Shown here: positions 1 to 57,281 of the stretch, one piece after another
How the letters are laid out: each line of letters starts with the position of its first letter
Numbering within the stretch: the first letter of the stretch is position 1
DNA from: Candidatus Nomurabacteria bacterium RIFCSPLOWO2_01_FULL_41_18
GTDB lineage: Bacteria > Patescibacteriota > Minisyncoccia > Phycocordibacterales > UBA9973
Reading direction: 5' to 3'
NCBI GenBank assembly: GCA_001785865.1
Contig: MFUZ01000006.1
Location: forward strand, 242,315-306,314
DNA length: 64,000 nucleotides
Program-made: the position numbers and the translations under genes
Notes under the pieces: generated by a model
The model's database searches: none
The model's input: only the letters and a program-made list of their open reading frames with translations
Told to the model about the DNA's origin: nothing

Positions 1-673
1 TGAAATAATCGGCGAGACACTCGATGACGCAGTGGGCGAGGCGTTCGACAAAGTAGCTCGGATGCTCGATCTCCCCTATCCCGGCGGTCCACAGATCTCA
101 AAATTGGCAGAAGAACTTAGGGCAAAAGAAGAACAATATTTTCGGGGACTCCGCAGGACGGCCGGTCCTAGGACTGAGCAGATTTTCCTGCAGGAAAATC
201 GCGACCCCGAAAAAATTAGTTCTTCTTTTGCCCTACCTCGTCCTATGCTGTACAGTAAAAATTTTGATTTTTCTTTTTCTGGATTAAAAACTGCTGTTCT
301 ATATTTGATTAGAGATTTAGGCGGTATCGATAAACTTGACCAAATTACAAAAACAAAGATCGCCTTAGAGTTCGAAAATTCCGCTATTGAGTGCTTAATT
401 CACAAGACTAAAAAAGCAGTAGAAAAATACGGGGCAAAAACGCTGATAGTCGCTGGTGGTGTGGCTTGCAATATACATCTGCAAAGAGAGATGTCCGCCC
501 TAGGCGGATCCGCCTCGGGCGGAAAGAAAATCAAGATTTTGTTCCCTTCAAAAGGACTTGCTGGCGATAATTCTCTAATGATCGGCATTGCCGGATACTT
601 AAATTATATAAAAAATAAGAAAAAAGTCCCAAAATTAAATAGTATAAAAGCTACTGGCAATTTAAGGCTTTAA
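1..673 (+). CDS. tsaD: tRNA N6-adenosine threonylcarbamoyltransferase TsaD (Kae1/Gcp family), 5'-truncated by window edge
   Basis: Frame continues from base 1 (EIIGETLDDAVGEAFDKVARMLDLPYPGGPQISKLA...FALPRPMLYSKNFDFSFSGLKTAV...IVAGGVACN), matching the TsaD C-terminal half; contains an extra GC-rich segment relative to orthologs. Confidence 0.8.
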   Translation, partial: EIIGETLDDAVGEAFDKVARMLDLPYPGGPQISKLAEELRAKEEQYFRGLRRTAGPRTEQIFLQENRDPEKISSSFALPRPMLYSKNFDFSFSGLKTAVLYLIRDLGGIDKLDQITKTKIALEFENSAIECLIHKTKKAVEKYGAKTLIVAGGVACNIHLQREMSALGGSASGGKKIKILFPSKGLAGDNSLMIGIAGYLNYIKNKKKVPKLNSIKATGNLRL

Positions 674-4989: not shown

Positions 4990-5110
4990 AAAATTCTTTG
5001 TATTATTTTCTAATATTCTAATTATATAACTAAATATAATATAATAGGTTCTCTCGGTCAGAATATCAATAAAAATTGCTATTCCTCCCTCTTTGCCTAT
5101 TATAGCATGC

Positions 5111-5139
5111 TTGTCAAGTAAACATAAAAAAGATATATT
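5111..5139 (+). promoter_or_regulatory. sigma70-like promoter for tRNA-Gly (TTGTCA-17bp-TATATT)
   Basis: -35 TTGTCA 5111-5116, 17-bp spacer, -10 TATATT 5134-5139, ~10 nt upstream of tRNA 5' end. Confidence 0.45.
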
Positions 5140-5148
5140 CTAACTGTT

Positions 5149-5219
5149 GCGGGATTAGTTTAGTGGTAAAATGAGTCCTTCCCAAGGATTAGACGCGAGT
5201 TCGATTCTCGCATCCCGCA
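5149..5219 (+). tRNA. tRNA-Gly (anticodon CCC)
   Basis: GCGGGAT acceptor / ATCCCGC, anticodon loop TTCCCAA, TTCGATT T-loop; no encoded CCA. Confidence 0.8.
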
Positions 5220-7667: not shown

Positions 7668-8918
7668 TTACTTGCCCGATATCTTGACGAGCCTGTCGTA
7701 TTTCACTTTTCTTTCAGGTTTAAGCGGAGCACCGGACTTCAAGCCAAAACATCCGAACGCAAAAGCAAGATCCGCGATAAAATCATCATTTGTTTCTTCT
7801 CCCCTGTGGCTCACGATGAGTTCGATGCCCCCCTCCCTCGCCACTTTCATCACCTCCAGAGTTTCAGACAGAGTCCCGATTTGGTTCGGCTTGATGATCA
7901 TGGCATTGATGCTTCTCATTTCAATCGCTTTTTTTAAGCGAAGCACATTGGTAACCGTCAGATCATCTCCAACCACTTTCAAGCGGCTGTGATTCCGACC
8001 AAGTGTGCCAAAACTTTCAAAATCTTCCTCATTGAATGGATCTTCGATAGATAATAAATTAAATTCAGCAATTAAAGAATCGTAAATTTTCATCAATTCT
8101 TCTTTTGAAATATTTTTACCATCAACTTGATAAACACCATTCCCGTAAAAAGAAGATGCAGCCACATCCAGAGCAAAACGCACTTTGCCTTCTAGATTAT
8201 TTCGCCCTACGGCCTCGGTGAGATACATAAGCGGTTTTCGAATATCGCTTACTTCTGGCGCAAAACCTCCCTCATCGCCTAAAACCACTGATTCTTTCCC
8301 TAAATCATTCTTAATTATATCCTCGAGAGATGCCTGCACTTTTATCCCGATATCAATAGCTTCATTTATATCATCCGTCTGGGGTATGACATGATATTCC
8401 TGAAAGGCGAGCCCACTCTTCGTATGTCTGCCTCCTTCGAGCAGATTCATAAAAAGATATGGGGTCTTTCGCGATGGCTTGATCTCGACGAGAGTTCCTA
8501 GATATTGATACACTTCTTGGTCTGTCGCCTTTGCGGCAGCTTTAGCGCAAGCTATCGAGACTCCGATCATAGAATTGCCGCCGAGATTGTCTTTATTGGG
8601 AGTGCCGTCCAACTCGATTATTATTCTATCAATTTCTTTTTGATTTAAAACATTCTGGTTAACCAATCGAGGGGCGATCACGGTATTTACCTTTTCTATG
8701 GCATCTTTTACGCCGAGGCCGTCCTTATCCCTTAATTCATGCGCCTCGTGGCTGCCGGTGCTCGCTCCGGAAGGAACCGAAAACGTGCCGGAAGCAGCCC
8801 CCGCCCCCGCCAGAGGCGGGCAGGCAAACACTGTGACTTCAATGGTAGGGTTTCCGTGCGAATCTTTTATTTCTTTAGCTAAAATTTTAGTAATAGGAAA
8901 ATTTGTTAATTCCGCCAT
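7668..8918 (-). CDS. eno: enolase (phosphopyruvate hydratase)
   Basis: GNPTIEV, SGASTGSHEAHELRD, SHRGEETNDDFIADLAFA motifs; small GC hairpin insert near N-terminus. Confidence 0.9.
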   Translation of the reverse strand: MAELTNFPITKILAKEIKDSHGNPTIEVTVFACPPLAGAGAASGTFSVPSGASTGSHEAHELRDKDGLGVKDAIEKVNTVIAPRLVNQNVLNQKEIDRIIIELDGTPNKDNLGGNSMIGVSIACAKAAAKATDQEVYQYLGTLVEIKPSRKTPYLFMNLLEGGRHTKSGLAFQEYHVIPQTDDINEAIDIGIKVQASLEDIIKNDLGKESVVLGDEGGFAPEVSDIRKPLMYLTEAVGRNNLEGKVRFALDVAASSFYGNGVYQVDGKNISKEELMKIYDSLIAEFNLLSIEDPFNEEDFESFGTLGRNHSRLKVVGDDLTVTNVLRLKKAIEMRSINAMIIKPNQIGTLSETLEVMKVAREGGIELIVSHRGEETNDDFIADLAFAFGCFGLKSGAPLKPERKVKYDRLVKISGK

Positions 8919-8961: not shown

Positions 8962-10104
8962 ATGGAAAAATTGATTAGCGGCCGAAACTACATAATGGAG
9001 AGAAAATACAAATGGATCATCAAGCCGATTTTGTTCAAATTTGATCCCGAAAACGTGCATGATAATATGGGCGTCGTCGGTCGTTGGCTCGGCAAACACT
9101 TCCTGACCCGTAAATTAGCGAGTTTATTTTGGAATTATTCAAATCCCGCACTGGAACAGAACATTCTCGGTATAAACTTCAAGAACCCGACAGGACTTTC
9201 GGCTGGTTTCGATAAGAATGCGGAATTGACCGAAATCATCTCTTCCATCAGTTTTGGCTTTATGGAAGTGGGCTCTATTACTGGTGAGGCCTGCGTAGGT
9301 AACCCCAAACCCCGGCTTTGGCGCTTGAAGAAATCGAGATCGCTCGCCGTAAATTACGGACTCATGAACGACGGCGCTGAAGCGATAGCCGAAAGATTGG
9401 GCAAGAAGCTCGAGGTGAAAAAATTCGATATCCCCGTCGGCATCAGTATCGCCAAAACAAATTGCAAAGACACAGTAGATACTGAAAAAGCCATCTTCGA
9501 TTATTTCAAGGCTTATCGAGCATTCATCGACATAGGCGACTATTTCACAATAAATATCAGCTGTCCGAACGCCTTTGGCGGACAGCCCTTCACCGACAGC
9601 ACCAAGCTCTACTTGCTGCTTTCGAAAATCATGTCCGTCCCGAAGACAAAACCTATTTTTATAAAATTATCCCCCGACTTAAAACAAAAAGAAATCAATG
9701 AAATACTAGATATTGCCGCAAAATGGAATGTGGACGGATTTATTTGCACAAATTTGACTAAAAATCGTAATAAAAAACAGAATAAAAACATTATAGATGA
9801 AAGCGTGCCGGAGTTAGGCGGACTGTCTGGGAAAGCAGTTGAAGATCTGTCGCTCGAACTGATCAGATATATTTATAAAAAAACAGGTGGAAAAGCAAGT
9901 AAATTTGTAATTATTGGCTGTGGTGGAGTCTTTAGCGCCGAAGATGCATACAAAAAAATAAAAGCCGGCGCTTCCCTCATCCAACTCATAACGGGAATGA
10001 TTTTCGAAGGCCCGCAACTAATTAGTGAAATAAATTTAGGATTAGTAAAACTCCTAAAAGCTGATGGTTATAAAAATATTTCTGAAGCAATTGGAAAAGA
10101 ATAG
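8962..10104 (+). CDS. pyrD: dihydroorotate dehydrogenase (quinone-type, class 2)
   Basis: N-terminal membrane-associated extension + NPTGLSAGFDKN and C-terminal GCGGVFSAEDAYKKIKAGASLIQL motifs. Confidence 0.75.
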   Translation: MEKLISGRNYIMERKYKWIIKPILFKFDPENVHDNMGVVGRWLGKHFLTRKLASLFWNYSNPALEQNILGINFKNPTGLSAGFDKNAELTEIISSISFGFMEVGSITGEACVGNPKPRLWRLKKSRSLAVNYGLMNDGAEAIAERLGKKLEVKKFDIPVGISIAKTNCKDTVDTEKAIFDYFKAYRAFIDIGDYFTINISCPNAFGGQPFTDSTKLYLLLSKIMSVPKTKPIFIKLSPDLKQKEINEILDIAAKWNVDGFICTNLTKNRNKKQNKNIIDESVPELGGLSGKAVEDLSLELIRYIYKKTGGKASKFVIIGCGGVFSAEDAYKKIKAGASLIQLITGMIFEGPQLISEINLGLVKLLKADGYKNISEAIGKE

Positions 10105-10106
10105 AA

Positions 10107-10138
10107 TTACGTAATGTATTACGTAATACATTACGTAA
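10107..10138. repeat. 32-bp perfect palindrome TTACGTAATGTATTACGTAATACATTACGTAA (copy 1) between convergent stops; probable bidirectional terminator
   Basis: Perfect self-complementarity; contains TACGTAA three times at 12-nt spacing; second near-identical copy at 56849-56882. Confidence 0.7.
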
Positions 10139-10146
10139 CTAAAATC

Positions 10147-11418
10147 TTATTTCTTCTTCAACAAAATCATCAAATCAGAAACGTTGGCCCCTGTTGCGCC
10201 GGTCATGATAATGTCGCCGGACTTTTGAAACACCGGGTAAGAATCGAAACGTTCTAGGTGATCATCGATATCTATACCTTGATTTTTTATTTTTTCAATA
10301 GTTTTTTTATCCGCTATGGCTCCAGCTGCATCGCTGTTGTCCATGCCGTCGGAAGCGAGAGAGACAAAGACCGAATCTTCGCCGATCATTCCTTTTTTGA
10401 TCACTCGGAGCGCCATATGGAGGTTTCTTCCGCCCTTTCCCCCTTTCCTTGCCACTTTTATTTCAGGCTCCCCAGCAGCCAAGACGGTAGTATCTGGGGC
10501 TTCCGCTTTAAAAATTTTCCCCACGGCAGAATCTATCTCATCATACATATCTGTGGATAAAATATTTGCTTTAAGGCCAAGTTCTTCCGACTTTTCGGCC
10601 ATCGCGCTTATGGCGGTCTTGTTTGAAACCAGGACAAAATTGCGTACTTTTTCAAAATATTTATCTTCTTTCGGAGTTTCTATCAGGTCGAATTTTCCCA
10701 AATTATATTTACGAATGATTTCTGCAGCATCCGCTACGGTACTCTCATCCTTGTAGGTGGGGCCTGAAGCGACATCAGCAAAATGATCCCCGGGTATATC
10801 GGAAAAAATAAGTCCGACGACATTGGCCGGATAAGCGACTTTGGCCAATCCCCCGCCTTTCAATATGGAAAGATGCTTCCGGACAGTATTTATTTCCTCG
10901 ATAGTGCCTCCACATTTCAAAAATTCATCATAGAGAGCCATATTTTGCTCGCACTCCTCTTTGGAATAGCAGAGCAAGGCAGAGCCACCGCCCGAGACAA
11001 GTACGATGATGAGATCATCTTCGCTTCCATTTTTCAATATTTCATATATTTTTTCACCGGCCTCTACATTCATCATACTCGGCCTCGGGTGGCTCCCGGC
11101 AAATACGTCGATATAGTCGAGGCTGATCTTGGCAAGTCCAACCACGGCGCCAGTTTCTATCTTCGGACCTAAAATTTTCTCCAACGCGAGAGCGGCACGG
11201 GCAGAAGCCTTGCCAAAACCGACAACTTTGATTTTTTTAAATTTCGACAGATCGAAACTCTCCCCCATTATGGTAAGTAGATCGCCCTCGGGCTTTACAA
11301 ATCGAGAAATTACTTCTTCGGTATCGATCGCCGATAGTCCCGCCTCAATGATAGCAAGAGCCAATTTACGATTTTCCGTTGTGGCGAGCTCGCCCTGATT
11401 TTTGATCCATCTTTTCAT
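10147..11418 (-). CDS. glycerate kinase, MOFRL family (glycerate 2-kinase-like)
   Basis: 423 aa; VVGFGKASARAA, VSGGGSALL, GGKGGRN motifs typical of MOFRL/DUF4147 glycerate kinases. Confidence 0.6.
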   Translation of the reverse strand: MKRWIKNQGELATTENRKLALAIIEAGLSAIDTEEVISRFVKPEGDLLTIMGESFDLSKFKKIKVVGFGKASARAALALEKILGPKIETGAVVGLAKISLDYIDVFAGSHPRPSMMNVEAGEKIYEILKNGSEDDLIIVLVSGGGSALLCYSKEECEQNMALYDEFLKCGGTIEEINTVRKHLSILKGGGLAKVAYPANVVGLIFSDIPGDHFADVASGPTYKDESTVADAAEIIRKYNLGKFDLIETPKEDKYFEKVRNFVLVSNKTAISAMAEKSEELGLKANILSTDMYDEIDSAVGKIFKAEAPDTTVLAAGEPEIKVARKGGKGGRNLHMALRVIKKGMIGEDSVFVSLASDGMDNSDAAGAIADKKTIEKIKNQGIDIDDHLERFDSYPVFQKSGDIIMTGATGANVSDLMILLKKK

Positions 11419-13077: not shown

Positions 13078-13208
13078 AAACTAGAAACTCGTTGCAGGCG
13101 TACTTTTTAGAAAGCCTTGCGCAGGCGGACGCGCCGAGCAGTTCGCTCCGCAAGCTTGCGGAGATAGATTGCTTTATAAAAAGTATGCCAAGAAAGAGTT
13201 TCTAGTTT
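13078..13208. repeat. GC-rich ~130-bp nested inverted-repeat element (terminal 13-bp IR AAACTAGAAACTC/GAGTTTCTAGTTT)
   Basis: Outer perfect 13-bp IR, second IR GTACTTTTTAGAAAGC/GCTTTATAAAAAGTA(T), central 18-bp perfect palindrome CTCCGCAAGCTTGCGGAG; overlaps lepA stop. Confidence 0.5.
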
Positions 13209-15136
13209 TCCCCGCTACGCATCATCTTCAAAAATACGTCTTGGGGAATGTTTACTTTGCCTCTTTCTTTCATTTTCTTTTTGCCTTTCTTTTGTTTCTC
13301 ACGAAGTTTCATTTTGCGAGTTATATCACCTCCATACATATGTGCAGTAACATCTTTTTTCATACCAGAAAGCGTGCGTGATGAGATGATGCGTCCAAAT
13401 GCTTTACCTTGGATTTTCAAAGTAAACATTTGCCTAGGCAACAAGCTCTCTAATTTTACAACAGACTCTTCGGCTTCTATTTCTACCCTTTTCTTTGAGA
13501 CAACTTTAGAAAAAGCTGGTACAGGTTCATCGGCAACCAACACATCAAGTCGGGTGACATCTGCTTCACGATTTTCGGCTATATTGTAAGATATTGATCC
13601 ATAGCCAGATGAAGTGCTTTTTAGTTCATCAAAGAAATTGCGCATCAATTCACGAAGCGGCATTTTTACAGATATAGATGAACGGTTGTCTCCGAAATTC
13701 TCAGTCTCCCCTACTTCTGCTTCATGATCAAACAATATCTGCATAATGTTACCTAGATATTCCACAGGAGTGATTATTTTTGCATTTACCCACGGCTCAA
13801 AAATAGTTTTAATATTACTGTCATCTGGAAAAAAGTACGGCGAATAAATCTTCTGCCTCTTCGGCAGATCGCCGATGAGGCGATTTCCAACATTAGTATT
13901 ATATTCTACTTCATATACGATAGAGGGCGTAGTGATGACAAGATTCAAATTAAATTCTCGCTTCAGTCTTTCAGTAATGATTTCTAAATGAAGCATTCCA
14001 AGAAAACCACAGCGAAAACCTCGCCCCAGAGATCCTGAAGATTCTTCTTCAAAAGAAAAAGACGAATCTGAAAGTTTTAGTTTTCCTAAAGAAAGCTTTA
14101 GTAAGGCAAAATCGTCCGCATCCTCGGGAAAAACACTCGCCCAAACCACCGGCATCGGCTGCATATATCCCGGAAGTGCAGGCAGTGGATTCGCAGATTT
14201 TGTAATCGTATCTCCAACAGAAGCAATACCAGGCTTTTTTATGCCTGTGACAATATAGCCGGTATCTCCAGCTGAGAGACTGTCTCGTGGAGTTTCTTCT
14301 GGTGAAAAAGTCCCGACCTCAAGCGCTGTAAATTTTTCCCCTGAGACAGCAAAAAGCAAGCTGTCACCCCGCCTCACCTTACCATCAAATAACCTCACAA
14401 AAACTATTACCCCTTTATGATTTGAATATTTAAAATCAAACACTAAAGCGCTCAAAACATTTTCACTTTTATTTTCATTTTTATAATTTTCAATTGGCGC
14501 CGGAACACGTTTTATAACTTCCTTTAAAAGATTTTCCACCCCTTCTCCTGTGCGACCTGAAACTAAAAGCACTTCATTTGGATCGCAATTTAAAAGTTTT
14601 ACCACTTCTTCTTTTACTTCCGACACCCTAGCCAAAGGTGAATCAATTTTAGAAAGGACAGGAATTATTACAGAGGCCCCTTCACCTCTCCCATTGCCAG
14701 AGCGGGGTAGGCGAGCCATAGCGAGCGTGGTAAGCGTCTGCGCCTGCACCCCCTGTGTGGAGTCAACCAGTAAAATAGACCCTTCCACGGCCTTCAGAGC
14801 CCTAGAGACTTCATAAGAAAAATCCACGTGTCCGGGAGTGTCAATGAGATTCAGTATGTAAACCTCATCCCCCGCCTTCTCCTGGGGGGAGAAGGAGCCC
14901 CCTCGCCTTCCAGGAGAGGGGTTAGGGGTGAGGTGGGTGGTGTATTCCATGCGAACGGGTTGCATTTTGATTGTAATACCTCGTTCACGCTCAAGCTCCA
15001 TAGAGTCTAGTACTTGATCACGCATTTTTCGCGCTTCTACTGTATGCGTGATCTCGAGCATTCTGTCTGCCAAAGTACTTTTGCCATGGTCTATGTGGGC
15101 GATTATTGAAAAGTTTCTGATGTGTTTTAGGTCCAT
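13202..15136 (-). CDS. lepA: elongation factor 4 (LepA)
   Basis: NFSIIAHIDHGKSTLADR, DTPGHVDF, full five-domain EF4 layout; carries ~20-aa GC-rich in-frame insert (LTPNPSPGRRGGSFSPQEKAG). Confidence 0.9.
   Translation of the reverse strand: MDLKHIRNFSIIAHIDHGKSTLADRMLEITHTVEARKMRDQVLDSMELERERGITIKMQPVRMEYTTHLTPNPSPGRRGGSFSPQEKAGDEVYILNLIDTPGHVDFSYEVSRALKAVEGSILLVDSTQGVQAQTLTTLAMARLPRSGNGRGEGASVIIPVLSKIDSPLARVSEVKEEVVKLLNCDPNEVLLVSGRTGEGVENLLKEVIKRVPAPIENYKNENKSENVLSALVFDFKYSNHKGVIVFVRLFDGKVRRGDSLLFAVSGEKFTALEVGTFSPEETPRDSLSAGDTGYIVTGIKKPGIASVGDTITKSANPLPALPGYMQPMPVVWASVFPEDADDFALLKLSLGKLKLSDSSFSFEEESSGSLGRGFRCGFLGMLHLEIITERLKREFNLNLVITTPSIVYEVEYNTNVGNRLIGDLPKRQKIYSPYFFPDDSNIKTIFEPWVNAKIITPVEYLGNIMQILFDHEAEVGETENFGDNRSSISVKMPLRELMRNFFDELKSTSSGYGSISYNIAENREADVTRLDVLVADEPVPAFSKVVSKKRVEIEAEESVVKLESLLPRQMFTLKIQGKAFGRIISSRTLSGMKKDVTAHMYGGDITRKMKLREKQKKGKKKMKERGKVNIPQDVFLKMMRSGEN
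14868..14940 (-). repeat. in-frame GC-rich palindromic element inside lepA (two hairpin units: CCTTCTCC-TGGGG-GGAGAAGG and CCCCTCGCCTTCCAGGAGAGGGGTTAGGGGTGAGG)
   Basis: Sequence family shared with copies in leuS (28866-28908) and giant protein gene (21118-21160); absent from E. coli LepA at this position. Confidence 0.7.
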
Positions 15137-20983: not shown

Positions 20984-25261
<4,278 letters not shown>

Positions 25262-28017: not shown

Positions 28018-30558
28018 CTAAATCACAATGTTGACAAGCCTGTTTTTCACATAAATCATCTTTTTGACGTCTTTTCCTGCAATATGCCTCACAACAGTTT
28101 CATTCTCCAGAGCTTTTTTCTTTATGCTTTCTTCTGTTTCATCTGCCTGCACAAAAATTTCAGCTCTAACTTTTCCATTTATTTGTATTACAATTTTAAT
28201 TTCTTCATCTTTTATTAAATTCTCATCCCATTTTGGCCAATTGGAGAGATTGATCGAATCCTTCTCTCCTAGAAGGCTCCATAATTCTTCGGTCATATGC
28301 GGTGCGAATGGTGAGAGAACTTGCAGAAATTTTTTATAATCTTCCACTGAAACATTTTCAGCTTTTTCCATCTCTGTCGCCAGAATCATCATGGAAGAGA
28401 TTGCGGTATTGAAATTCATACCCTCTATATCTTCAGAAACTTTTTTTATGGTTTTGTGCAATAACCGAACCAGTGGAGAATTTTTTGACATTCCGGAAGA
28501 ATTATTAAATTTCAAAACTTTCTCCCCTATCCTCCAAACTTTTTCAATAAATCTTCTAGCTCCGATAATGCTTTCCGTAGACCAAGCCACGGACTGATCA
28601 AACGGCCCCATAAACATTTCATAAACTCGAAGTGTATCTGCGCCATAGGTTTTCACAATGTCATCCGGGTTAATTACATTTCCAAGAGACTTGGACATTT
28701 TGACTCCCCCTTCACCCAAGATCATCCCATGCGAAGTACGCTTCATGTATGGCTCGTTTGTAGGCACAAGTTTCAAATCAAAAAGAAATTTATGCCAAAA
28801 ACGAGAATACAAAAGATGCAGAGTCGTGTGTTCATTTCCGCCGTTGTACCAGTCTACTCCACCCGTATTTCCCCCTCTCCTTTCAGGAGAGGGCTGGGGT
28901 GAGGTTAACCAGTATTTTAAATTTTTCTTGCTTGCAAATTCTTTATTATTTTTCGCATCAGCATATCGCAAATAATACCAAGAACTTCCAGCCCAGTTTG
29001 GCATGGTGTCTGTTTCTCTTTTTGCTTTACCAAGGCACTTTGGACATTTCACATTTACCCATTTTGAAATGTTTGCGAGTGGTGATTCGCCACTATCCGT
29101 CGGCTGATAATTCTTAACTTTTGGTAATTCCACCGGCAAATCTTTTTCTGGAACTGGAACTACCCCACAATCTTGGCAATGTATAACTGGTATGGGCTCA
29201 CCCCAGTATCGCTGTCTAGAAAAAATCCAGTCACGAAGTTTGAAGGTCGTCTTTCTAGAAGCGGCACTCTCTGAACTTAACCAATCAATAATTTTAGGTC
29301 GAGCTTCTGCTGAAGTTAAACCATCAAATTGTTTAGAATTAAAAAGCACACCTTCACCTTCGTAACATTCTTCCATGTTTTTTATTTTCTCAAAAAGTGA
29401 TTCGTCTTTGGATTTGATCGAAACCTTGAGAGGAATATTATATTTTTTCGCCATATCAAAATCCCTTTTATCATGAGCATCAGCAAATACAGCGCCAGTC
29501 CCATAATGAACTAACACAAAATCTGATACCCAAACTGGTATTTCTTCTTTGGTTGCTGGATTAATGACCCTGACACCCTTTAATTCAATTCCCGTTTTAT
29601 TACTTTCTGCTGTTCTCTCAACTTCTGGTCTATTTTTAACTTCTTTAATATATTTTTCAACTTCATTCCAGTTTAAAATACTATTTTTGTATTCTTGAAT
29701 AAATGAATGTTCGGGAGCTAAAACAATAAAAGTACAAGAAAAAATTGTATCGACACGAGTAGTAAAAACTTTTATAGCTAGGTCTTGTCTAGCTGAAACT
29801 TTAAACTCTATTTCTGCGCCTTCACTTTTCCCTATCCAATTCCTCTGCCCAAGCTTAATTTGTGGAAGATAATTTACATCATCTAAATCTTTATAAAGCC
29901 TATCGGCGTATTTTGTAATCGCTAGCATCCATTGCTCTTTCTCCCTTTTTTCCACTGCAGTCCCACAACGTTCACAAACGCCAGCTTGCCCTGAGCCTGT
30001 CGAACGGGTTACAACTTCTTCATTCGCAAGTCCAATTTTATCCTTCGGGCACCAGTTTATCGTCATCTTCGCTTTGTAAGCTAAACCTTTTTTCAAAAAT
30101 TGTAAAAATATCCACTGTGTCCATTTGTAATATTTTGGATCAGTGGTATTTATTTCTCGCGACCAATCAAAAGAAATACCGAGTGACTTTATCTGTCTGC
30201 GAAAAGTATCACTATTTTTCTTGGTAACTATCCGTGGATCTTTGCCTGTTTTTATTGCAAAGTTTTCTGTCGGCAATCCAAATGCATCCCAACCTATAGG
30301 ATACAAAACATTAAAACCTTCTAGCCTTCTTTTTCTAGAAATAATATCCATCCCTATGTAAGGCCTTGGATGCCCTACATGAAGACCGTCTCCAGAAGGA
30401 TATGGAAACTCTATCAAGCCATAGAATTTCGGCTTGATCGCAGACTTACTCAGACTGGACGCGGACTGACGCGGAAAATCTTTTGCATAATATATTCCAT
30501 TTTTGTCCCAGATAGTCTGCCATTTACTTTCTATCTTTAAGTGGTTATATTCCTTCAT
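28018..30558 (-). CDS. leuS: leucine--tRNA ligase
   Basis: FPYPSGDGLHVGHPRPY HIGH region, KMSKSLGN, editing domain; carries 16-aa GC-rich insert TSPQPSPERRGGNTGG. Confidence 0.9.
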   Translation of the reverse strand: MKEYNHLKIESKWQTIWDKNGIYYAKDFPRQSASSLSKSAIKPKFYGLIEFPYPSGDGLHVGHPRPYIGMDIISRKRRLEGFNVLYPIGWDAFGLPTENFAIKTGKDPRIVTKKNSDTFRRQIKSLGISFDWSREINTTDPKYYKWTQWIFLQFLKKGLAYKAKMTINWCPKDKIGLANEEVVTRSTGSGQAGVCERCGTAVEKREKEQWMLAITKYADRLYKDLDDVNYLPQIKLGQRNWIGKSEGAEIEFKVSARQDLAIKVFTTRVDTIFSCTFIVLAPEHSFIQEYKNSILNWNEVEKYIKEVKNRPEVERTAESNKTGIELKGVRVINPATKEEIPVWVSDFVLVHYGTGAVFADAHDKRDFDMAKKYNIPLKVSIKSKDESLFEKIKNMEECYEGEGVLFNSKQFDGLTSAEARPKIIDWLSSESAASRKTTFKLRDWIFSRQRYWGEPIPVIHCQDCGVVPVPEKDLPVELPKVKNYQPTDSGESPLANISKWVNVKCPKCLGKAKRETDTMPNWAGSSWYYLRYADAKNNKEFASKKNLKYWLTSPQPSPERRGGNTGGVDWYNGGNEHTTLHLLYSRFWHKFLFDLKLVPTNEPYMKRTSHGMILGEGGVKMSKSLGNVINPDDIVKTYGADTLRVYEMFMGPFDQSVAWSTESIIGARRFIEKVWRIGEKVLKFNNSSGMSKNSPLVRLLHKTIKKVSEDIEGMNFNTAISSMMILATEMEKAENVSVEDYKKFLQVLSPFAPHMTEELWSLLGEKDSINLSNWPKWDENLIKDEEIKIVIQINGKVRAEIFVQADETEESIKKKALENETVVRHIAGKDVKKMIYVKNRLVNIVI
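28866..28908 (-). repeat. in-frame GC-rich palindromic element copy (CCCCCTCTCCTTTCAGGAGAGGGCTGGGGTGAGG) in leuS
   Basis: 9-bp perfect IR CCTCTCCT/AGGAGAGG plus GGGGTGAGG tail; absent from E. coli LeuRS between YWLP and VD(I/W)Y. Confidence 0.7.
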
Positions 30559-31794: not shown

Positions 31795-32772
31795 TTATAC
31801 GCCCCAAACCGCCGTATTGGCAAGTGGGATGATGCGATTGTTGGACTTTTCTAATACACAAAGCTCACCAGCTTCTATTTGGCCTTCAAAGTTTTTCATA
31901 GTTTCCTCTAGTGCATACCCAAGAGAAAGTGAAGAAGAATCTATCGCATACGAGGTTAAAATAACAAAAAGTGGCTTGTCACTCAAAACTTTTTGCACTG
32001 CTGATAAAAGCTTTGGCAACATTTCTTCTATTTTCCAAACTTCTCCTTTTGGTCCCCTACCAAACTTTGGTGGATCCATTATTATGGCATCATATTTGTT
32101 TCCCCTCTTTGCTTCTCTCTCTAGGAATTTTATTGCATCATCTTCTATGATTCGCATGCCTGTTAGTCCTAAATGACTATTGAGTTTTTCATTTTCTTTT
32201 GCCCAAGCGAGGCTTTGCTTTGAAGCATCGAGGTGCGTCACTACTGCGCCAGCGCGAAGCGCAAACAAGCTCGCCACTCCCGTATAGCCGAACAAGTTCA
32301 AAAATCTAGGTCTGGAAGCAGAGGGAGAATTCTGGCGGCGGAAGGTTCCGTCCGAAGGATGGAGGAATGTCGCAGAATTCTCCTTCTGTAAAAGACCACC
32401 AACACTAGCGCTGATCTTTTCTTCAATAAAATCCCAGTGGCAAGCCTGCTCTGGGAAAAATCCCAAGTGTCGGAAAGGAGTAGGTGAAGCCAGAAATTTA
32501 ATGCCTTTATATTGCATCTCCCATCTATCTTGAATCTTTTCTTTCATCTTCCACCCAGCTTTTGCTCCCACTTTTGAACTCCAAAATTTACCGTCAGCTT
32601 TATTCCATTCTTTTTCCGACAAAGTTTTTGCCCAAACAGCATCTTCATAAGGACGCACAAAAACATATTTACCAAATCGCTCCAACTTTTCCCCCTCACC
32701 CGTATCTAGGAGCTCATAATCACCGAAGTCTGTGGAATCTTTCAAATAAAAAATTTTAATTTGGTTTTGCAT
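31795..32772 (-). CDS. class I SAM-dependent rRNA methyltransferase (RlmI/RlmK-like)
   Basis: LFGYTGVASL..HLDASK SAM-binding motif and DPPKFGRGPKGEVWKIEE catalytic region; contains 60-bp GC-rich in-frame palindromic insert. Confidence 0.65.
   Translation of the reverse strand: MQNQIKIFYLKDSTDFGDYELLDTGEGEKLERFGKYVFVRPYEDAVWAKTLSEKEWNKADGKFWSSKVGAKAGWKMKEKIQDRWEMQYKGIKFLASPTPFRHLGFFPEQACHWDFIEEKISASVGGLLQKENSATFLHPSDGTFRRQNSPSASRPRFLNLFGYTGVASLFALRAGAVVTHLDASKQSLAWAKENEKLNSHLGLTGMRIIEDDAIKFLEREAKRGNKYDAIIMDPPKFGRGPKGEVWKIEEMLPKLLSAVQKVLSDKPLFVILTSYAIDSSSLSLGYALEETMKNFEGQIEAGELCVLEKSNNRIIPLANTAVWGV
32324..32383 (-). repeat. 60-bp (20-codon) GC-rich in-frame insert bounded by perfect 11-bp inverted repeat GGAGAATTCTG/CAGAATTCTCC
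   Basis: Read directly; length multiple of 3; lies in linker of methyltransferase. Confidence 0.55.
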
Positions 32773-33271: not shown

Positions 33272-33312
33272 GAACCACCGATGTTGATAAATTCTGCATA
33301 TGCAGAATTTAT
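33272..33312. repeat. 40-bp perfect palindrome GATGTTGATAAATTCTGCATATGCAGAATTTATCAACATC just downstream of PaaX-like gene
   Basis: Perfect IR; half-site recurs upstream of same gene at 33941-33963. Confidence 0.7.
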
Positions 33313-33322
33313 CAACATCTAG

Positions 33323-33925
33323 TTAAGGCAAGTGAAAATGTTTCCCTAATTTTTCATCTCTCAAAATGTTTTCTACGACCAAAATCTCAACACACTTCTC
33401 TACTCCAAAGAAATCAGCAATAAATATTATTTCGTCTTCGCATGGATAAGGATAAATCCAAGCGGATTTTTGAAATTGAAAAAAATTTAGTTCTTTCAAA
33501 TGAAAACGTAATGCTTCCCGTCCTTTTGTAAATCTCATAGGAATATCAAACATAACTAATCTCCATTTACCGTCCCATTTCTTAGGCTTGTTAATTTTCA
33601 TCAACTCAATATCAAAAACTTTTAATTTAGTATCACCTTTTTTTGTAATTTTTACTATTGTTTTCCCGTTCTTGTCAGAGACATATTCTATAAGATTTTG
33701 TTTACGAAGATGATTTATTGAATTTCTAATTTGTTCCTTACTGAGATGTTTAGAACTTTTAAATTGTCTGAAAACTTGTACTGCATTGCCCATAGCAGCC
33801 GCAATCAAAACAAGAGCTGGAATTGACGCAACAGCGATCACACACAAAACCACTTGAGCAATCTGGGCTTTTCTTGTCTTAGAATCCAAAAATTCTCTAA
33901 TTCTTGAGGAATATTTATTTTTCAT
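33323..33925 (-). CDS. PaaX-family-like transcriptional regulator (TM anchor + winged-helix + PaaX_C/Cas2-like alpha/beta domain), tentative
   Basis: wHTH-like LRKQNLIEYVSDKNGKTIVKITKKGDTKL; C-terminal WRLVMFDIP...ALRFHLKELNFFQFQKSAWIY; ATG at 33925 preferred over upstream TTG at 33961. Confidence 0.45.
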   Translation of the reverse strand: MKNKYSSRIREFLDSKTRKAQIAQVVLCVIAVASIPALVLIAAAMGNAVQVFRQFKSSKHLSKEQIRNSINHLRKQNLIEYVSDKNGKTIVKITKKGDTKLKVFDIELMKINKPKKWDGKWRLVMFDIPMRFTKGREALRFHLKELNFFQFQKSAWIYPYPCEDEIIFIADFFGVEKCVEILVVENILRDEKLGKHFHLP

Positions 33926-33940
33926 ATTGTTTATAATTAT

Positions 33941-33963
33941 AGCATATGCAGAATTTATCAACA
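33941..33963. promoter_or_regulatory. upstream copy of 22-bp motif GCATATGCAGAATTTATCAACA (candidate operator) in promoter region of PaaX-like gene
   Basis: Direct match to half of the downstream 40-bp palindrome. Confidence 0.4.
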
Positions 33964-33987: not shown

Positions 33988-34839
33988 CTATACCAAAAAC
34001 TCTATCACATCCCCATCCTTGACAATATATTCTTTGCCCTCGGTGCGGACCCAGCCTTTCTCTCGCGCTTTTGCAAAACTCCCCGCTTCTACTAATTGTT
34101 CATAAGACACCACTTCTGCGCGAATAAACTTTTGTTGAAAATCAGTATGGATGGAACGACCTGCAAAAGGCGCAGTGGCTCCACGAAGCGTGGTCCATGC
34201 CCTTGATTCATCTTCGCCAGTTGTAAAAAAAGTTATTAAATTTAATAAATCATAACTAGCTTTAATTAGATTATCCAAACCCGTGCCAAAAATAGGATCA
34301 ACTTCTATGTGTGGTCCAGGAAGCTTCGCAACGAAATCTTTCCCGCCCGACTGAACGACATCAGTCGTTCGGGCGGGTTTTACATTTTCAGCTAAAGCTG
34401 AAGTATTTAAGACATATAACGTTGGTTTTTTAATTCCTCCTTGCTCCAATTCAAAATTGATAACTTCTATATCAAAAAGCGGATCAACTTTGTCGTGAAC
34501 ATGAATCATGTCTTTATCTTCAAAAATCCGCACCACCTCAATGATGGCATCCACTTCGCGAATATGCGAAAGAAATTTATTTCCAAGCCCTGCGCCCTCG
34601 CTCGCACCTTTTACAAGCCCTGCAATATCCACAAATTCAACTACAGCGGGTATAGTTTTCTTTGATTTAGATATAACGGAGAGTTTCATCAAGCGTTCGT
34701 CCGGCACAGGCACAATGCCCACCGATGGATCAATGGTGCAAAAAGGATAATTCTCCGCCGGGACATTTTTCTTTGTAAGAGCGTTAAAAAGCGTGGATTT
34801 GCCGACATTAGGAAGCCCTACAATTCCGATTTTAAGCAT
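33988..34839 (-). CDS. ychF: ribosome-binding ATPase YchF (Obg-like GTPase family), short form
   Basis: [29 protein letters not shown]-terminal TGS-like domain. Confidence 0.8.
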
Positions 34840-55999: not shown

Positions 56000-56857
56000 A
56001 TGGATAAATTAAGCTTTGTATTTTGGGGAACACCCGATGTAGCCTCTGAGACACTTGAAACCTTAAAGCAAGCTAGATTTTTACCGTCTTTGATTGTTAC
56101 ATCTCCAGATGCAAAAAAAGGGAGAGGCATGCATATGGAAGCATCCCCCGTAGCCATTTTTGCAGAACAAAATAAAATACCTTGTCTTAAACCCGAAAAA
56201 CTTGACGAAGAATTTTGTAATAAACTAAAGCCTAGCTGTCTAAAGCCTAATTGCCTATTTATTGTGGTTGCTTACGGCAAAATAATACCTGAAAATATTA
56301 TAAATATGCCGAAATTGGGCTCTATCAATATACATTATTCACTTCTCCCAAAATATCGTGGAGCTTCTCCTGTAGAATCTGCGATCTTAAACGGAGATAC
56401 GGAAACAGGAGTGACTATACAAAAAATGGTATATAAATTGGATGCAGGAAACATATTAGCGCAAGAAAAGGTGCAAATATCGCCTGATGAAACAGCTCCA
56501 GAATTAAGAAAAAAATTAATTAAAATAGGTGGAGAACTTTTGGTAAAAACTTTAGGAACCCCCTCCTTCCTCCCCCTTATCAAGGGGGAGGTGCCGAAAG
56601 TGGTAGGGATCGAGCAAGATGAATCTCAAGCCACATTTTGCAAAAAAATTAAAAAAGAAGACGGACTGATAGATTTAAATGCCGATGCAGTTACAAACTA
56701 TAATAAATGGAGAGCCTATGTCTTTTGGCCAAGAACTTTCTTTTTTGTAAATGGAAAGAGAATAATAGTTACTGACGCAAAGCTTATAGATGGAAAGTTT
56801 GTGATTAAAAAAATCATTCCAGAAAACGGAAAAGAAATGAATTACAAAGTTACGTAA
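56000..56857 (+). CDS. fmt: methionyl-tRNA formyltransferase
   Basis: N-terminal formyltransferase (NIHYSLLPKYRGASPVESAILNGD) and C-terminal domain; small GC hairpin insert at 56569-56591. Confidence 0.85.
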   Translation: MDKLSFVFWGTPDVASETLETLKQARFLPSLIVTSPDAKKGRGMHMEASPVAIFAEQNKIPCLKPEKLDEEFCNKLKPSCLKPNCLFIVVAYGKIIPENIINMPKLGSINIHYSLLPKYRGASPVESAILNGDTETGVTIQKMVYKLDAGNILAQEKVQISPDETAPELRKKLIKIGGELLVKTLGTPSFLPLIKGEVPKVVGIEQDESQATFCKKIKKEDGLIDLNADAVTNYNKWRAYVFWPRTFFFVNGKRIIVTDAKLIDGKFVIKKIIPENGKEMNYKVT

Positions 56858-56882
56858 TGTATTACGTAATACATTACGTAAC
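56849..56882. repeat. 34-bp perfect palindrome GTTACGTAATGTATTACGTAATACATTACGTAAC (copy 2) overlapping fmt and hpf stop codons
   Basis: Identical 32-bp core to copy at 10107-10138; same convergent-gene context. Confidence 0.7.
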
Positions 56883-57281
56883 TTAATACTTCGAAGTAAA
56901 AGGATTTCGTTTTGAGAGACCCTTCATCATCTTTTTGACACTGCGGGCTCCGCGATACAAGAGCGTCTGACTGCGATCTTTGTTTTTATTTATTTCGTAG
57001 TAGAGAGTGTCTTTAATGGCATCTATCGCCTGATATAAATCTTCCTTATCAGAGCTAGAATAAAATTCTTTGCCGTCTATCTTGATCAGACAATCTGCAT
57101 GGAAAACCTCGCCTGATTTATGATGATTTGTGGACTTGCCTACTTCGAAATTTACCATCACCTTTCCTCCCCCTTCTTTTATCCTGGTAAGAAGCTTTTC
57201 CAAGTTGGTAACCCTCTTCAAAACATAGTCTTTTATAGCTTCAGTTAATTCAATATTTTTACCCTGTAAATTGATTTGCAT
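56883..57281 (-). CDS. hpf: ribosome hibernation promoting factor (HPF/RaiA/YfiA family)
   Basis: MQINLQGKNIELTEAIKDYV... typical RaiA fold signature. Confidence 0.8.
   Translation of the reverse strand: MQINLQGKNIELTEAIKDYVLKRVTNLEKLLTRIKEGGGKVMVNFEVGKSTNHHKSGEVFHADCLIKIDGKEFYSSSDKEDLYQAIDAIKDTLYYEINKNKDRSQTLLYRGARSVKKMMKGLSKRNPFTSKY

Follow-up and report, generated by a model that had tools for sequence, protein, structure and literature searches.

The tsaD gene at the start of the 64-kb stretch of Patescibacteria (Nomurabacteria-like) DNA analysed here (the window), from a very small bacterium of groundwater, contains an 84-nt segment, positions 135-218, which is an insertion relative to empty orthologues and a member of a dispersed family of small repeats that is previously undescribed. 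The constraint on this insert is on nucleic acid pairing, and its peptide is free to change. The origin we consider probable is that the insert is a copy of a small non-autonomous palindromic repeat family in Patescibacteria (class Paceibacteria), tolerated in a permissive loop, and that template switching has lengthened its arms.

The identity of the host gene is clear. The frame-2 translation at the window's edge is TsaD, with a best PDB match at E = 4.7e-28, and among the 120 homologues listed those with source names are annotated as TsaD; the full-length protein in the source genome has 395 aa. Positions 1-673 are identical in three independent assemblies, which excludes an assembly artefact for the insert, and no presence/absence or inversion polymorphism within the species is seen among the three. 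A preliminary description of this DNA had reported a palindromic segment inserted in frame after the AEELR block and before LPRPM, at a point where other TsaD proteins are contiguous; the first statement holds, and the second does for most TsaD proteins. Solved TsaD structures have 1-4 residues where the window protein has 29-37, and among 156 Patescibacteria tsaD loci the distance from YPGGP to LPRPM is bimodal, with 29 aa in 41 loci and 57 aa in 20, including the window. The difference between the two modes, 28 aa or 84 nt, is also the modal gain across loci, and removing 135-218 brings the window loop back to the modal 29 aa. In the list of features below, R2 stands for a model of the structure of the two-hairpin core (~60 nt) that was seeded without any window sequence.

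2-673, + strand: 3' part of tsaD (tRNA t6A37 threonylcarbamoyltransferase), frame 2, truncated at the window edge
118-134, + strand: left outer arm, TAGGGCAAAAGAAGAAC, host-type codons R-A-K-E-E-Q, perfect complement of 219-235
135-218, + strand: inserted unit, 84 nt, 28 codons, inner terminal inverted repeat plus two-hairpin core, encoding (Q)YFRGLRRTAGPRTEQIFLQENRDPEKI
135-147, + strand: left inner terminal inverted repeat, AATATTTTCGGGG, including the 9-mer of the preliminary description
146-205, + strand: conserved family core, R2 match of 37.1 bits, E = 1.1e-10
150-173, + strand: hairpin P2, with a 3-bp helix, a GCA/A internal loop, a 5-bp G+C helix and a GGCCG loop
178-202, + strand: hairpin P3, GATTTTCC-TGCA-GGAAAATC with a GC/GC extension, including CCTGCAGG
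205-217, + strand: right inner terminal inverted repeat, CCCCGAAAAAATT
219-235, + strand: right outer arm, GTTCTTCTTTTGCCCTA, codons S-S-F-A-L, reverse complement of 118-134
13078-13208, + strand: second copy in the window, intergenic, outer stem 13078-13115 / 13171-13208
13114-13173, + strand: core of the second copy, R2 match of 31.4 bits, E = 1.2e-8

The palindrome is larger than first described. The repeat units TTTTCGGGG at 139-147 and CCCCGAAAA at 205-213 are present, but 9 bp is too short an extent for a repeat that runs over 118-147 / 206-235. Likewise, the 75-nt span 139-213, read in frame 2 as ..YFRGLRRTAGPRTEQIFLQENRDPEK.., does exist but is not the boundary of the insert, since the unit is 135-218 and the pairing reaches into host codons over 118-235. 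The internal palindrome CCTGCAGG at 187-194 was correctly described. Pairing is near-complete along the arms, which enclose the two inner hairpins, and the left arm encodes K/E-rich host sequence that is present in empty-site orthologues as well. In tsaD copies of flipped orientation (A-) the mismatch of the inner repeat is flipped too, which indicates that the inserted unit includes the inner repeat. Similar T-rich inner repeats are found at non-orthologous copies, and two copies in locus L055 have the inner repeat ACCTTTTTGRACC in common. A family copy measures ~80-84 nt, with a core of ~57-60 nt forming two hairpins between the arms of a T-rich terminal inverted repeat of 10-13 nt. In the family consensus, P2 is GGCY-GACG-RGCC flanked by GCA and GA, which form its internal loop, and P3 has a stem of 7 bp capped by the loop AGCA. 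When perfect hairpins with 7-bp stems are counted in 1.23 Mb of related DNA, AGCA is again the commonest loop.

The segment folds into a stable hairpin. As RNA, 130-222 reaches -37.4 kcal/mol (z = -4.66), an energy that none of 200 shuffles equals, and as single-stranded DNA, 118-235 reaches -40.0 kcal/mol on the + strand and -39.3 kcal/mol on the - strand (z = -10.1 and -9.3). As a control, the outer stems that flank 60-nt segments chosen at random from the same loci have at most 12 bp, with a median of 7. These z-scores and stem controls together exclude chance as the source of the palindrome. The surrounding genome had been called AT-rich, which is moderately true at a G+C content of ~40% for the window. 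A second G+C-rich stretch of tsaD, 492-525, was checked with covariance models and contains no family member.

Our census of the family is based on R2. A full-length model with tsaD arms (R1) scored the tsaD copy at 89.7 bits (122-232) and the second window copy at 49 bits (E = 7e-10), but elsewhere it mostly re-found tsaD copies and A/T-rich hairpins, and the core-only model was used instead. R2 has exactly two matches in the window. The right arm of the second copy overlaps the final codons and the stop of lepA (13202-13204, - strand), and its folds have z-scores of -8.9 and -6.8. Over 1.8 Mb there are 71 matches, of which 42 are at the tsaD loop, where the core is found in 41 of 160 related loci of a sample centred on tsaD; the loop contains double copies in L004 and L105. 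With the second window copy and 28 matches in related loci outside the tsaD loop, the expectation of related copies elsewhere is confirmed. About 25 of these 29 are intergenic, often beside tRNA genes; those that clearly lie within a gene are once more in tsaD, at other positions (L110, L024). The copies occupy non-orthologous sites in many genomes: intergenic, beside tRNA genes, after lepA or tsaD, and in the N-terminal half of tsaD. Near-identical cores are found at such sites in different genomes, for example in the tsaD copy of L003 and the intergenic copy of L101, and the core sequence is kept across genomes whose TsaD proteins are only 50-60% identical. The source genome has 2 copies in ~80 kb, of which the ~16 kb that lie beyond the window on both sides contain no further copy. 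Two exact-pattern scans of viral contigs for the core gave 0 matches.

The preliminary description had regarded the tsaD insert as the same element as inserts in lepA, leuS, a methyltransferase gene and fmt, and proposed a genome-wide class of repeats invading coding sequences. None of these four inserts lies under an R2 match; they belong to other sequence families, namely family D5 and an fmt-type hairpin. The inserts in lepA, leuS and fmt are themselves real. The lepA insertion adds 19 residues relative to solved EF4, and the fmt-type hairpin is also found at the tsaD loop of other genomes (L015, L140). There are several hairpin families in permissive protein loops, then, but not a single genome-wide class, and with most of its copies outside the tsaD loop intergenic, the tsaD family itself is no broad invader of coding sequences. 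The circumstances that would have spoken against an inserted repeat element, an ancestral loop of equal length without an inverted repeat or an element without relatives, are not what we observe.

What is being maintained can be read from the alignments. In the tsaD insert alignment 95.1% of cells are paired and double changes occur in 23 of 31 pairs, while 0 of 500 shuffles pair as well and slid controls reach 40-59%. Covariation is found in 12 of 19 pairs of P1 (the outer arms plus inner repeat) across orthologues, and 24 diverse copies show compensatory changes in 7/7 pairs of P2 and 7/7 pairs of P3. These compensatory changes alter the peptide, as in SAPRARG versus SAGSADP. The AGCA strand has 17 G-U cells and 5 A-C cells. 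At the tsaD loop the + orientation has 31 copies and the - orientation 11; at least five combinations of orientation and frame occur, and they are always open. The resulting peptide classes (RGVSQADGPRGSAPRARGDSDPEKI, GSLSPRARGALPLGSSACETPRKD, RGRNFSAEKFAQSSGRRPAESPQ and others) are reverse-complement readings of one DNA and differ wholly between orientations and frames. All filled tsaD sites found are in frame and stop-free, over more than 20 distinct lengths, so that the insert is probably translated. Copies at this hot spot have 3.4 open frames of 6, compared with 2.0 for other copies.

The position of the insert can be partly understood from the protein. The AlphaFold2 model of a homologue that is 75% identical and carries an insert of the same class (mean pLDDT 84.7) falls below a pLDDT of 50 in just one internal segment, residues 213-239, and this is the insert. 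On this model, the insert is placed where the TsaD fold appears to tolerate additions, and its peptide is predicted to be disordered. Unrelated hairpins are found at the same loop in L103, L067, L054, L015 and L140. Tolerance alone does not explain the bias towards one loop of one gene, which has 42 of the ~45 in-gene copies in our tsaD-centred sample. Many of these 42 may descend from few insertion events. When the loci are sorted by average linkage, an ordering that is no phylogeny, the site is empty in nearly all outgroups with less than 60% identity and mostly filled in the clade at 60-83%, with a few empty sites interspersed.

The favoured origin by insertion can be put into steps. The element or its ancestor would have entered the TsaD surface loop between ISKLAEExR and LPRPM, and the ribosome would read through it, adding ~28 disordered residues. 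The insert would persist because the loop tolerates almost anything. Template switching between inverted repeats is known to homogenise and expand arms and to invert spacers (PMC8604942, PMC13100816, PMC8794818). Here, polymerase template switching between the arms may homogenise them and extend them outwards into host codons, which would give the 17 unbroken base pairs between 118-134 and 219-235. The outer arms may have been made in this way, and inversion of the spacer could produce both orientations at one site. We infer that the family is mobile and selfish rather than functional. Signs of mobility are the two orientations and several frames at the tsaD loop, the double copies, the extra copies at other tsaD positions and the inner repeat common to two L055 copies. 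On the other side stand the low copy number, the lack of polymorphism among the three assemblies, and the lack of a target-site duplication: at the ends of the stem, direct repeats do not exceed the length seen in random controls, and the flanks are inverted. Nor did a transposase or other mobilising gene come to light. A tblastn search with IS200 TnpA and E. coli RayT as approximate queries against 1.8 Mb of partial genomes gave one weak match, in L026, a locus without copies.

We also entertain, as a speculation that is more likely wrong than right by a wide measure, that the P2/P3 core is the recognition module of an undiscovered Patescibacteria machine, which would insert the element into hairpins or quasi-palindromes, at their tips or centres, or else copy the flank in inverted orientation during insertion. 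A related idea sees the core as a structured RNA whose function is linked to tRNAs. If there is such a machine, the flank repeats left behind as it moves DNA would be inverted, not direct, and it would explain why the outer stems are perfect and locus-specific and why the tsaD loop, which is quasi-palindromic with K/E followed by F/S codons, is preferred.

An unlikely alternative is that the two-hairpin core is a functional element, either a protein-binding site or a signal for RNA processing, stability or termination. Such an element would be mainly intergenic and tRNA-flanking, with the tsaD copies co-opted, for example as an RNase III or regulatory site, or mere by-products. Its sequence and structure are kept in deeply diverged genomes, with 14/14 pairs of P2 and P3 covarying, and the excess of G-U over A-C cells on the AGCA strand points in the same direction. 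A short-stem subfamily lies 16-140 nt from tRNA genes, and 10/10 copies downstream of a tRNA gene are on the strand of that tRNA. This strand bias and the conservation of the core at 50-60% TsaD identity are no less compatible with a functional element than with a selfish one. Long-stem copies directly after stop codons (window 13078-13208, L101:5704-5814, L055:10576-10679) resemble terminators, but all three are antisense to the upstream gene, and with both orientations in tsaD the mRNA can carry either strand. In addition, the tsaD copy is absent from many relatives, and the two copies of the window genome are considerably different from each other. Rfam 15 at the gathering score, applied to the window and seven loci with copies, returned tRNAs only, and for window 60-300 at E up to 10 it gave nothing better than E = 4.8. 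Inspection by eye for a ribozyme found CUGA at 175-178 but neither a hammerhead core nor box C.

It is very unlikely that nothing moved, with an ancestral loop expanding in place, a hairpin made and kept by template switching, and the likeness to other loci due to convergence or gene conversion. Template switching can create and maintain hairpins and invert spacers (PMC8794818, PMC8604942), the outer arms are locus-specific with host-type codons, and the hot-spot copies are all in related clades. Against this origin, the same 57-60-nt core including its loop sequences is found at non-orthologous sites in many genomes, and hairpins arising de novo would not have P2 and P3 sequence in common. 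The gains at tsaD are quantised at ~+84 nt, which counts against expansion in place, and two loci have double copies. For the core, the non-orthologous copies largely refute this explanation; we still favour it for the outer arms only.

It seems to us highly improbable that the insert is adaptive for the TsaD protein of this lineage, for instance as a new interaction loop that replaces missing t6A partners. Most members of a large clade do keep it at one surface loop, always in frame and stop-free. However, the peptide changes completely with orientation and frame, there is no conserved residue pattern across the insert classes, and residues are freely rewritten by the compensatory changes in the stem. 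The insert is missing from the close relatives L008, L097 and L108, and the AlphaFold model has pLDDT below 50 over it. Some yeast mitochondria bypass GC-rich mobile inserts, and the near-perfect ~30-bp stem is a plausible RNase III substrate, but an untranslated intervening sequence that is cut from the mRNA and religated or skipped by the ribosome is scarcely credible when the open frames of all filled sites, in five orientation/frame combinations, would be needless, and no intron or ribozyme family of Rfam matches.

As an insertion that is probably read through, the tsaD repeat invites comparison with known systems. The closest are the Rickettsia palindromic elements (RPEs; Ogata et al. 2000), hairpin repeats of ~100-150 bp according to the accounts that cover them (PMC10969869, PMC3733652). 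Like RPEs, the tsaD insert is a short hairpin repeat in a small reduced genome, in frame in an essential gene and probably read through, at a position predicted to be compatible with the fold. RPEs lack their own transposase, and none was found for the tsaD family in 1.8 Mb of partial genomes; both have intergenic copies too. Going by description, the tsaD family is set apart by its phylum (Patescibacteria, not Rickettsiales) and its shorter unit of ~84 nt. RPEs are found in dozens of unrelated genes and the tsaD family in essentially one; its outer arms are locus-specific, and with both orientations and several frames in use it has no single conserved element-encoded peptide.

Intragenic REP and RPE repeats can encode 20-30 aa, and REP dimers occur within long palindromes (PMC3733652, PMC10969869). 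The tsaD family is similar to REP/BIME/REPIN sequences (PMC3733652) in being made of small G+C-rich stem-loops, often paired into larger hairpins, which lie mostly just downstream of genes and are at times intragenic. REPs of the CGTC type have no dedicated transposase (PMC3733652), and the REP dimers in long palindromes, for which an empty form has never been found, pose the same puzzle as the tsaD outer arms. Unlike REPs, the family has no conserved terminal GTAG or CGTC in our alignments (A3, A4), with GACG as the P2 loop instead; P2 and P3 are dissimilar, so that the core is no head-to-head dimer of one unit. Its copy number is low, ~1 per 30-40 kb, and a RAYT gene was not found in the 1.8 Mb of partial genomes.

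With bacterial MITEs (PMC10969869) the family shares its non-autonomous nature, a size below 200 bp, terminal inverted repeats, strong secondary structure and the possibility of in-frame fusions with host ORFs. It differs from them in the lack of a target-site duplication and in having its most conserved part inside (P2, P3) rather than at the termini, and we identified no parent IS with matching ends in the loci of partial genomes examined. Coding palindromes are known in which perfect inverted repeats have both arms protein-coding (PMC6649704, PMC8604942, PMC13100816), and in gene repeats homogenised by polymerase template switching the arms are homogenised or expanded and the spacers inverted. 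Those palindromes need no imported sequence, whereas the tsaD palindrome is centred on a conserved dispersed core. The stem-loop arrays of TIGR-Tas (PMC12045711) were considered and rejected, as the copies are single and dispersed and the core alignment has no box C (RUGAUGA). Literature searches covering palindromic elements and inserts read in frame, for the CPR, Patescibacteria and Parcubacteria, brought up nothing on this family.

Patescibacteria (the Candidate Phyla Radiation) have among the smallest and most streamlined bacterial genomes, yet here the gene of an essential universal enzyme carries an in-frame hairpin repeat, which in relatives is flipped, doubled, replaced by another repeat family or absent. 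This would extend the phenomenon of selfish DNA in protein genes, known from Rickettsia, to a second, unrelated lineage with reduced genomes. Inserts of this kind make CPR proteins longer, upset the alignment of orthologues and the placing of domain boundaries, and point to loops in which insertions are tolerated. The covariance model of the core can be reused for a census of the family, and the combination of a conserved P2/P3 core, locus-specific perfect arms and adjacency to tRNA genes may point the way to a new mechanism of mobilisation or a new structured RNA.

The window opens within tsaD, the gene that precedes a class-I aminoacyl-tRNA synthetase gene:

2-673, + strand: 3' part of tsaD, in frame 2

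The nearest TsaD homologues belong to Patescibacteria and lie in metagenome bins of the Nomurabacteria and Nealsonbacteria type. In L164, a locus from a different assembly of the species, the full-length TsaD of the source genome has 395 aa (L164:8793-9980); besides the 28-aa insert, its N-terminal half has 6 extra residues (SAGRRS) after KKW compared with E. coli. The window has an average G+C of about 40%. The sequence features named in the preliminary description are found at 139-147 (TTTTCGGGG), 205-213 (CCCCGAAAA) and 187-194 (CCTGCAGG). The inverted repeat is likewise present, but it is far longer than the 9 bp that had been claimed, with pairing extending to 118-235. Because 118-134 is perfectly complementary to 219-235, the arms at 118-147 and 206-235 make up a near-continuous stem of about 30 bp, which encloses two inner hairpins. 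Folding confirms a stable hairpin, with z = -4.7 for the RNA of 130-222 and z = -10.1 (+ strand) and -9.3 (- strand) for the single-stranded DNA of 118-235. Control stems, taken around randomly placed 60-nt windows in these loci, had a median of 7 bp and a maximum of 12 bp, so that none was as long as the tsaD stem.

Solved TsaD structures have 1-4 residues at this site, compared with 29-37 in the window protein. We collected 160 tsaD loci, 80 of them from species representatives and 80 from metagenome contigs, and the distance between the YPGGP and LPRPM motifs was measurable in 156 of them, including the window. Its distribution is bimodal: 41 loci have 29 aa and 20, the window among them, have 57 aa. 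The distribution also has shoulders at 54-61 aa and extends to values of 63-98 aa, and the two loci of this largest class that we inspected, L004 and L105, are double inserts. The loop is empty in nearly all relatives below about 60% identity, and mostly filled, with a few scattered empties, in the clade at 60-83% identity. The proposed insertion relative to orthologues is borne out by the loop lengths of these 156 loci, but the unit is 84 nt (135-218) and not 75. Deleting 135-218 gives the modal 29-aa loop and joins the outer arms into a perfect palindrome of 34 bp. An assembly artefact is ruled out, since window positions 1-673 are identical across three independent assemblies.

The peptide classes found at the tsaD loop of homologues are apparently unrelated, yet they are one DNA read in opposite orientations. 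For instance, RGVSQADGPRGSAPRARGDSDPEKI and GSLSPRARGALPLGSSACETPRKD are two orientations of the same DNA, and the window class RGLRRTAGPRTEQIFLQENRDPEKI results when the DNA of RGRNFSAEKFAQSSGRRPAESPQ (L005, L007) is read in reverse. Once co-oriented, all variants have in common a hairpin P2 (consensus GGCY-GACG-RGCC between GCA and GA), a short GAG-containing linker and a hairpin P3 with an AGCA loop on a 7-bp stem. In 1.23 Mb of related DNA, AGCA is also the commonest tetraloop among hairpins with a perfect 7-bp stem. A covariance model of the core only (R2), for which 22 copies from outside the window served as seed, has exactly two significant matches in the 64 kb:

146-205: core of the tsaD insert (37.1 bits, E = 1e-10)
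13114-13173: core of an intergenic copy (31.4 bits, E = 1e-8)
13078-13208: long outer stem of the intergenic copy, overlapping the lepA end

No more copies turned up in an additional 16 kb of this genome. Over all loci and the window, R2 gave 71 matches, 42 at the tsaD loop and 29 elsewhere (about 25 of these intergenic), in agreement with the expectation that related copies exist beyond tsaD. Extra copies lie in the N-terminal half of tsaD at L110:4633-4745 and L024:1144-1205; the former is in frame, immediately before the IDAIAVT motif, and the tsaD of L110 thus holds two copies. Near-identical cores are found at non-orthologous sites of different genomes, as for example in the L003 tsaD copy and the L101 intergenic copy. 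The tsaD insert is a member of a dispersed family with a conserved core. Elsewhere in tsaD, 492-525 contains two adjoining mini-hairpins, TCCGCC-CTA-GGCGGA and TCCGCC-TCG-GGCGGA. They code for SALGGSASGG, at a position at which relatives are about 5 residues shorter, and match neither covariance model.

What is conserved in the insert is the nucleic-acid structure and not the peptide. The consensus of 15 orthologous A/B-type elements is a three-way junction of 31 pairs, in which 95.1% of cells are paired and 23 of the 31 pairs show changes on both sides. None of 500 shuffles matched the observed pairing and covariation, and slid controls reached 40-59% pairing. The covarying pairs take in 12 of the 19 in helix P1 (outer arms and inner repeat), the outer arms of which are host codons. 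Among 24 diverse copies, all 14 pairs of P2 and P3 have compensatory changes, and such changes alter the peptide (SAPRARG, SAGSADP, SAVRART). All filled tsaD sites found are in frame and free of stop codons, with more than 20 distinct lengths. The copies at this loop lie 31 times in + and 11 times in - orientation, in five orientation/frame combinations, and their cores have 3.4 open frames of 6, compared with 2.0 in copies elsewhere. Judging from the sequences, the insert is probably translated. In an AlphaFold2 model of a 382-aa homologue (75% identical, same insert class) the mean pLDDT is 84.7, and the sole internal segment below 50, residues 213-239, is the insert.

The 84-nt unit most likely behaves as a small non-autonomous palindromic repeat. 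It is made up of the core and an inner inverted repeat, which is T-rich and 10-13 nt long. In the alignment, the G·A mismatch of the inner repeat in + oriented A-class copies becomes T·C in - oriented ones, and the inner repeat is therefore part of the unit that is flipped or inserted. At two different loci of L055, the copies have the same inner repeat. No target-site duplication was found around family copies, and a search of the loci found no transposase. Stem sequences outside the inner repeat are specific to each locus and pair almost perfectly; in the window they take in 17 bp of host codons, and in the intergenic copies of L101 and L063 they reach 27-28 bp. The best-supported cause of these outer stems is polymerase template switching between inverted-repeat arms, which would generate them; template switching homogenises arms, expands them and inverts spacers (PMC8604942, PMC13100816, PMC8794818). 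The reading frame would survive because template switching overwrites sequence and leaves its length unchanged. Another possibility is that the element was inserted at the centre of quasi-palindromes that already existed; at empty sites the K/E-rich then F/S-rich coding of the tsaD loop is weakly self-complementary. REP dimers embedded in long palindromes pose the same puzzle (PMC3733652). A new mobilisation mechanism that targets hairpins seems unlikely to us.

We consider it rather improbable that the core is a functional element, although several observations would fit this. The core is conserved over deep divergence, and the AGCA strand has more G-U than A-C cells. Furthermore, a short-stem subfamily, with the pattern GCCGGAG-hairpin-GAGGCGGGGTCGC-hairpin with AGCA loop-GACC, adjoins tRNA genes at 16-140 nt, and copies downstream of a tRNA gene are on the strand of the tRNA in 10 of 10 cases.

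Short-stem copies near tRNA genes
L022:357-878
L024:1-580
L005:5771-6362
L005:14124-14285
L055:8985-9060
L099:4424-4488
L086:4363-4435
L011:7009-7114

The tsaD element works in like manner to Rickettsia palindromic elements and intragenic REPs (PMC10969869, PMC3733652), but it could not be assigned to any named family. It differs from REPs in having no GTAG or CGTC terminal tag, and no RAYT gene was found in the loci searched. The element matched no Rfam family, exact-pattern scans of IMG/VR viral contigs gave no match to the core, and our literature searches found no description of such elements in CPR bacteria. TIGR stem-loop arrays were rejected, as the copies here are dispersed singles without box C.

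The preliminary description had assigned the palindromic inserts of tsaD, lepA and fmt, among others, to one class. These inserts are real, but according to R2 those of lepA and fmt are outside the tsaD family. The hairpin repeats that this window has in protein loops thus belong to several families and not to one class. One of them, a separate family named D5 (CCCCCTCGCC..GGAGAGGGG..GGGGTGAGG), has three copies:

14860-14944, - strand: D5 in lepA
21121-21161: D5 in a 1425-aa ORF without Pfam match
28871-28911: D5 in leuS

The lepA copy coincides with 19 extra residues (THLTPNPSPGRRGGSFSPQEK) compared with solved EF4, and the G+C-rich hairpin of fmt (56555-56599, CTCCCCCTTATCAAGGGGGAG) adds a few residues compared with solved Fmt structures. 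LepA has another 9 extra residues at about 142-153 (LPRSGNGRGEG). The 1425-aa ORF (20984-25261, - strand) contains an internal periodic repeat with units 237-594 nt apart and the motif CCGTCGTCCCGATGCCGAC. In a SAM methyltransferase gene, at 32319-32388, 16-bp arms (CAGAGGGAGAATTCTG / CAGAATTCTCCTTCTG) enclose a loop of 38 nt that is rich in G+C, and ychF has a G+C palindrome with a 14-bp stem at 34338-34378; neither hairpin has other copies among the collected related loci. The MMR_HSR1 domain of YchF is about 30 residues longer than the Pfam profile. Two copies of an A+T-rich palindrome (containing TTACGTAATGTATTACGTAATACATTACGTAA; 10097-10148 and 56839-56892) sit exactly at the ends of the dihydroorotate dehydrogenase gene and fmt, and may serve as bidirectional terminators or represent a further repeat family. 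A 212-aa ORF (33323-33961) is bracketed by a perfect 36-40-nt palindrome (TGTTGATAAATTCTGCATATGCAGAATTTATCAACA) and its 86% copy (33282-33317 / 33928-33963), an arrangement that looks operator-like. Enolase, one 416-aa ORF at 7668-8918, is called as two pieces (314 and 84 aa) in L164:16975-18225, which a strain frameshift or an error of assembly might explain.

The tsaD loop of other genomes houses unrelated hairpins (also in L096):

L103:~5100-5150: perfect palindrome of 48 nt
L067:2677-2765: hairpin with a 20-bp perfect stem
L054:10118-10215: unrelated hairpin

In L015 and L140 the loop carries the 23-nt motif of the fmt gene of this window. As unrelated hairpins occupy the same loop, the tolerance of this site is one factor, but it does not by itself explain why the tsaD-insert family is rare in other genes.
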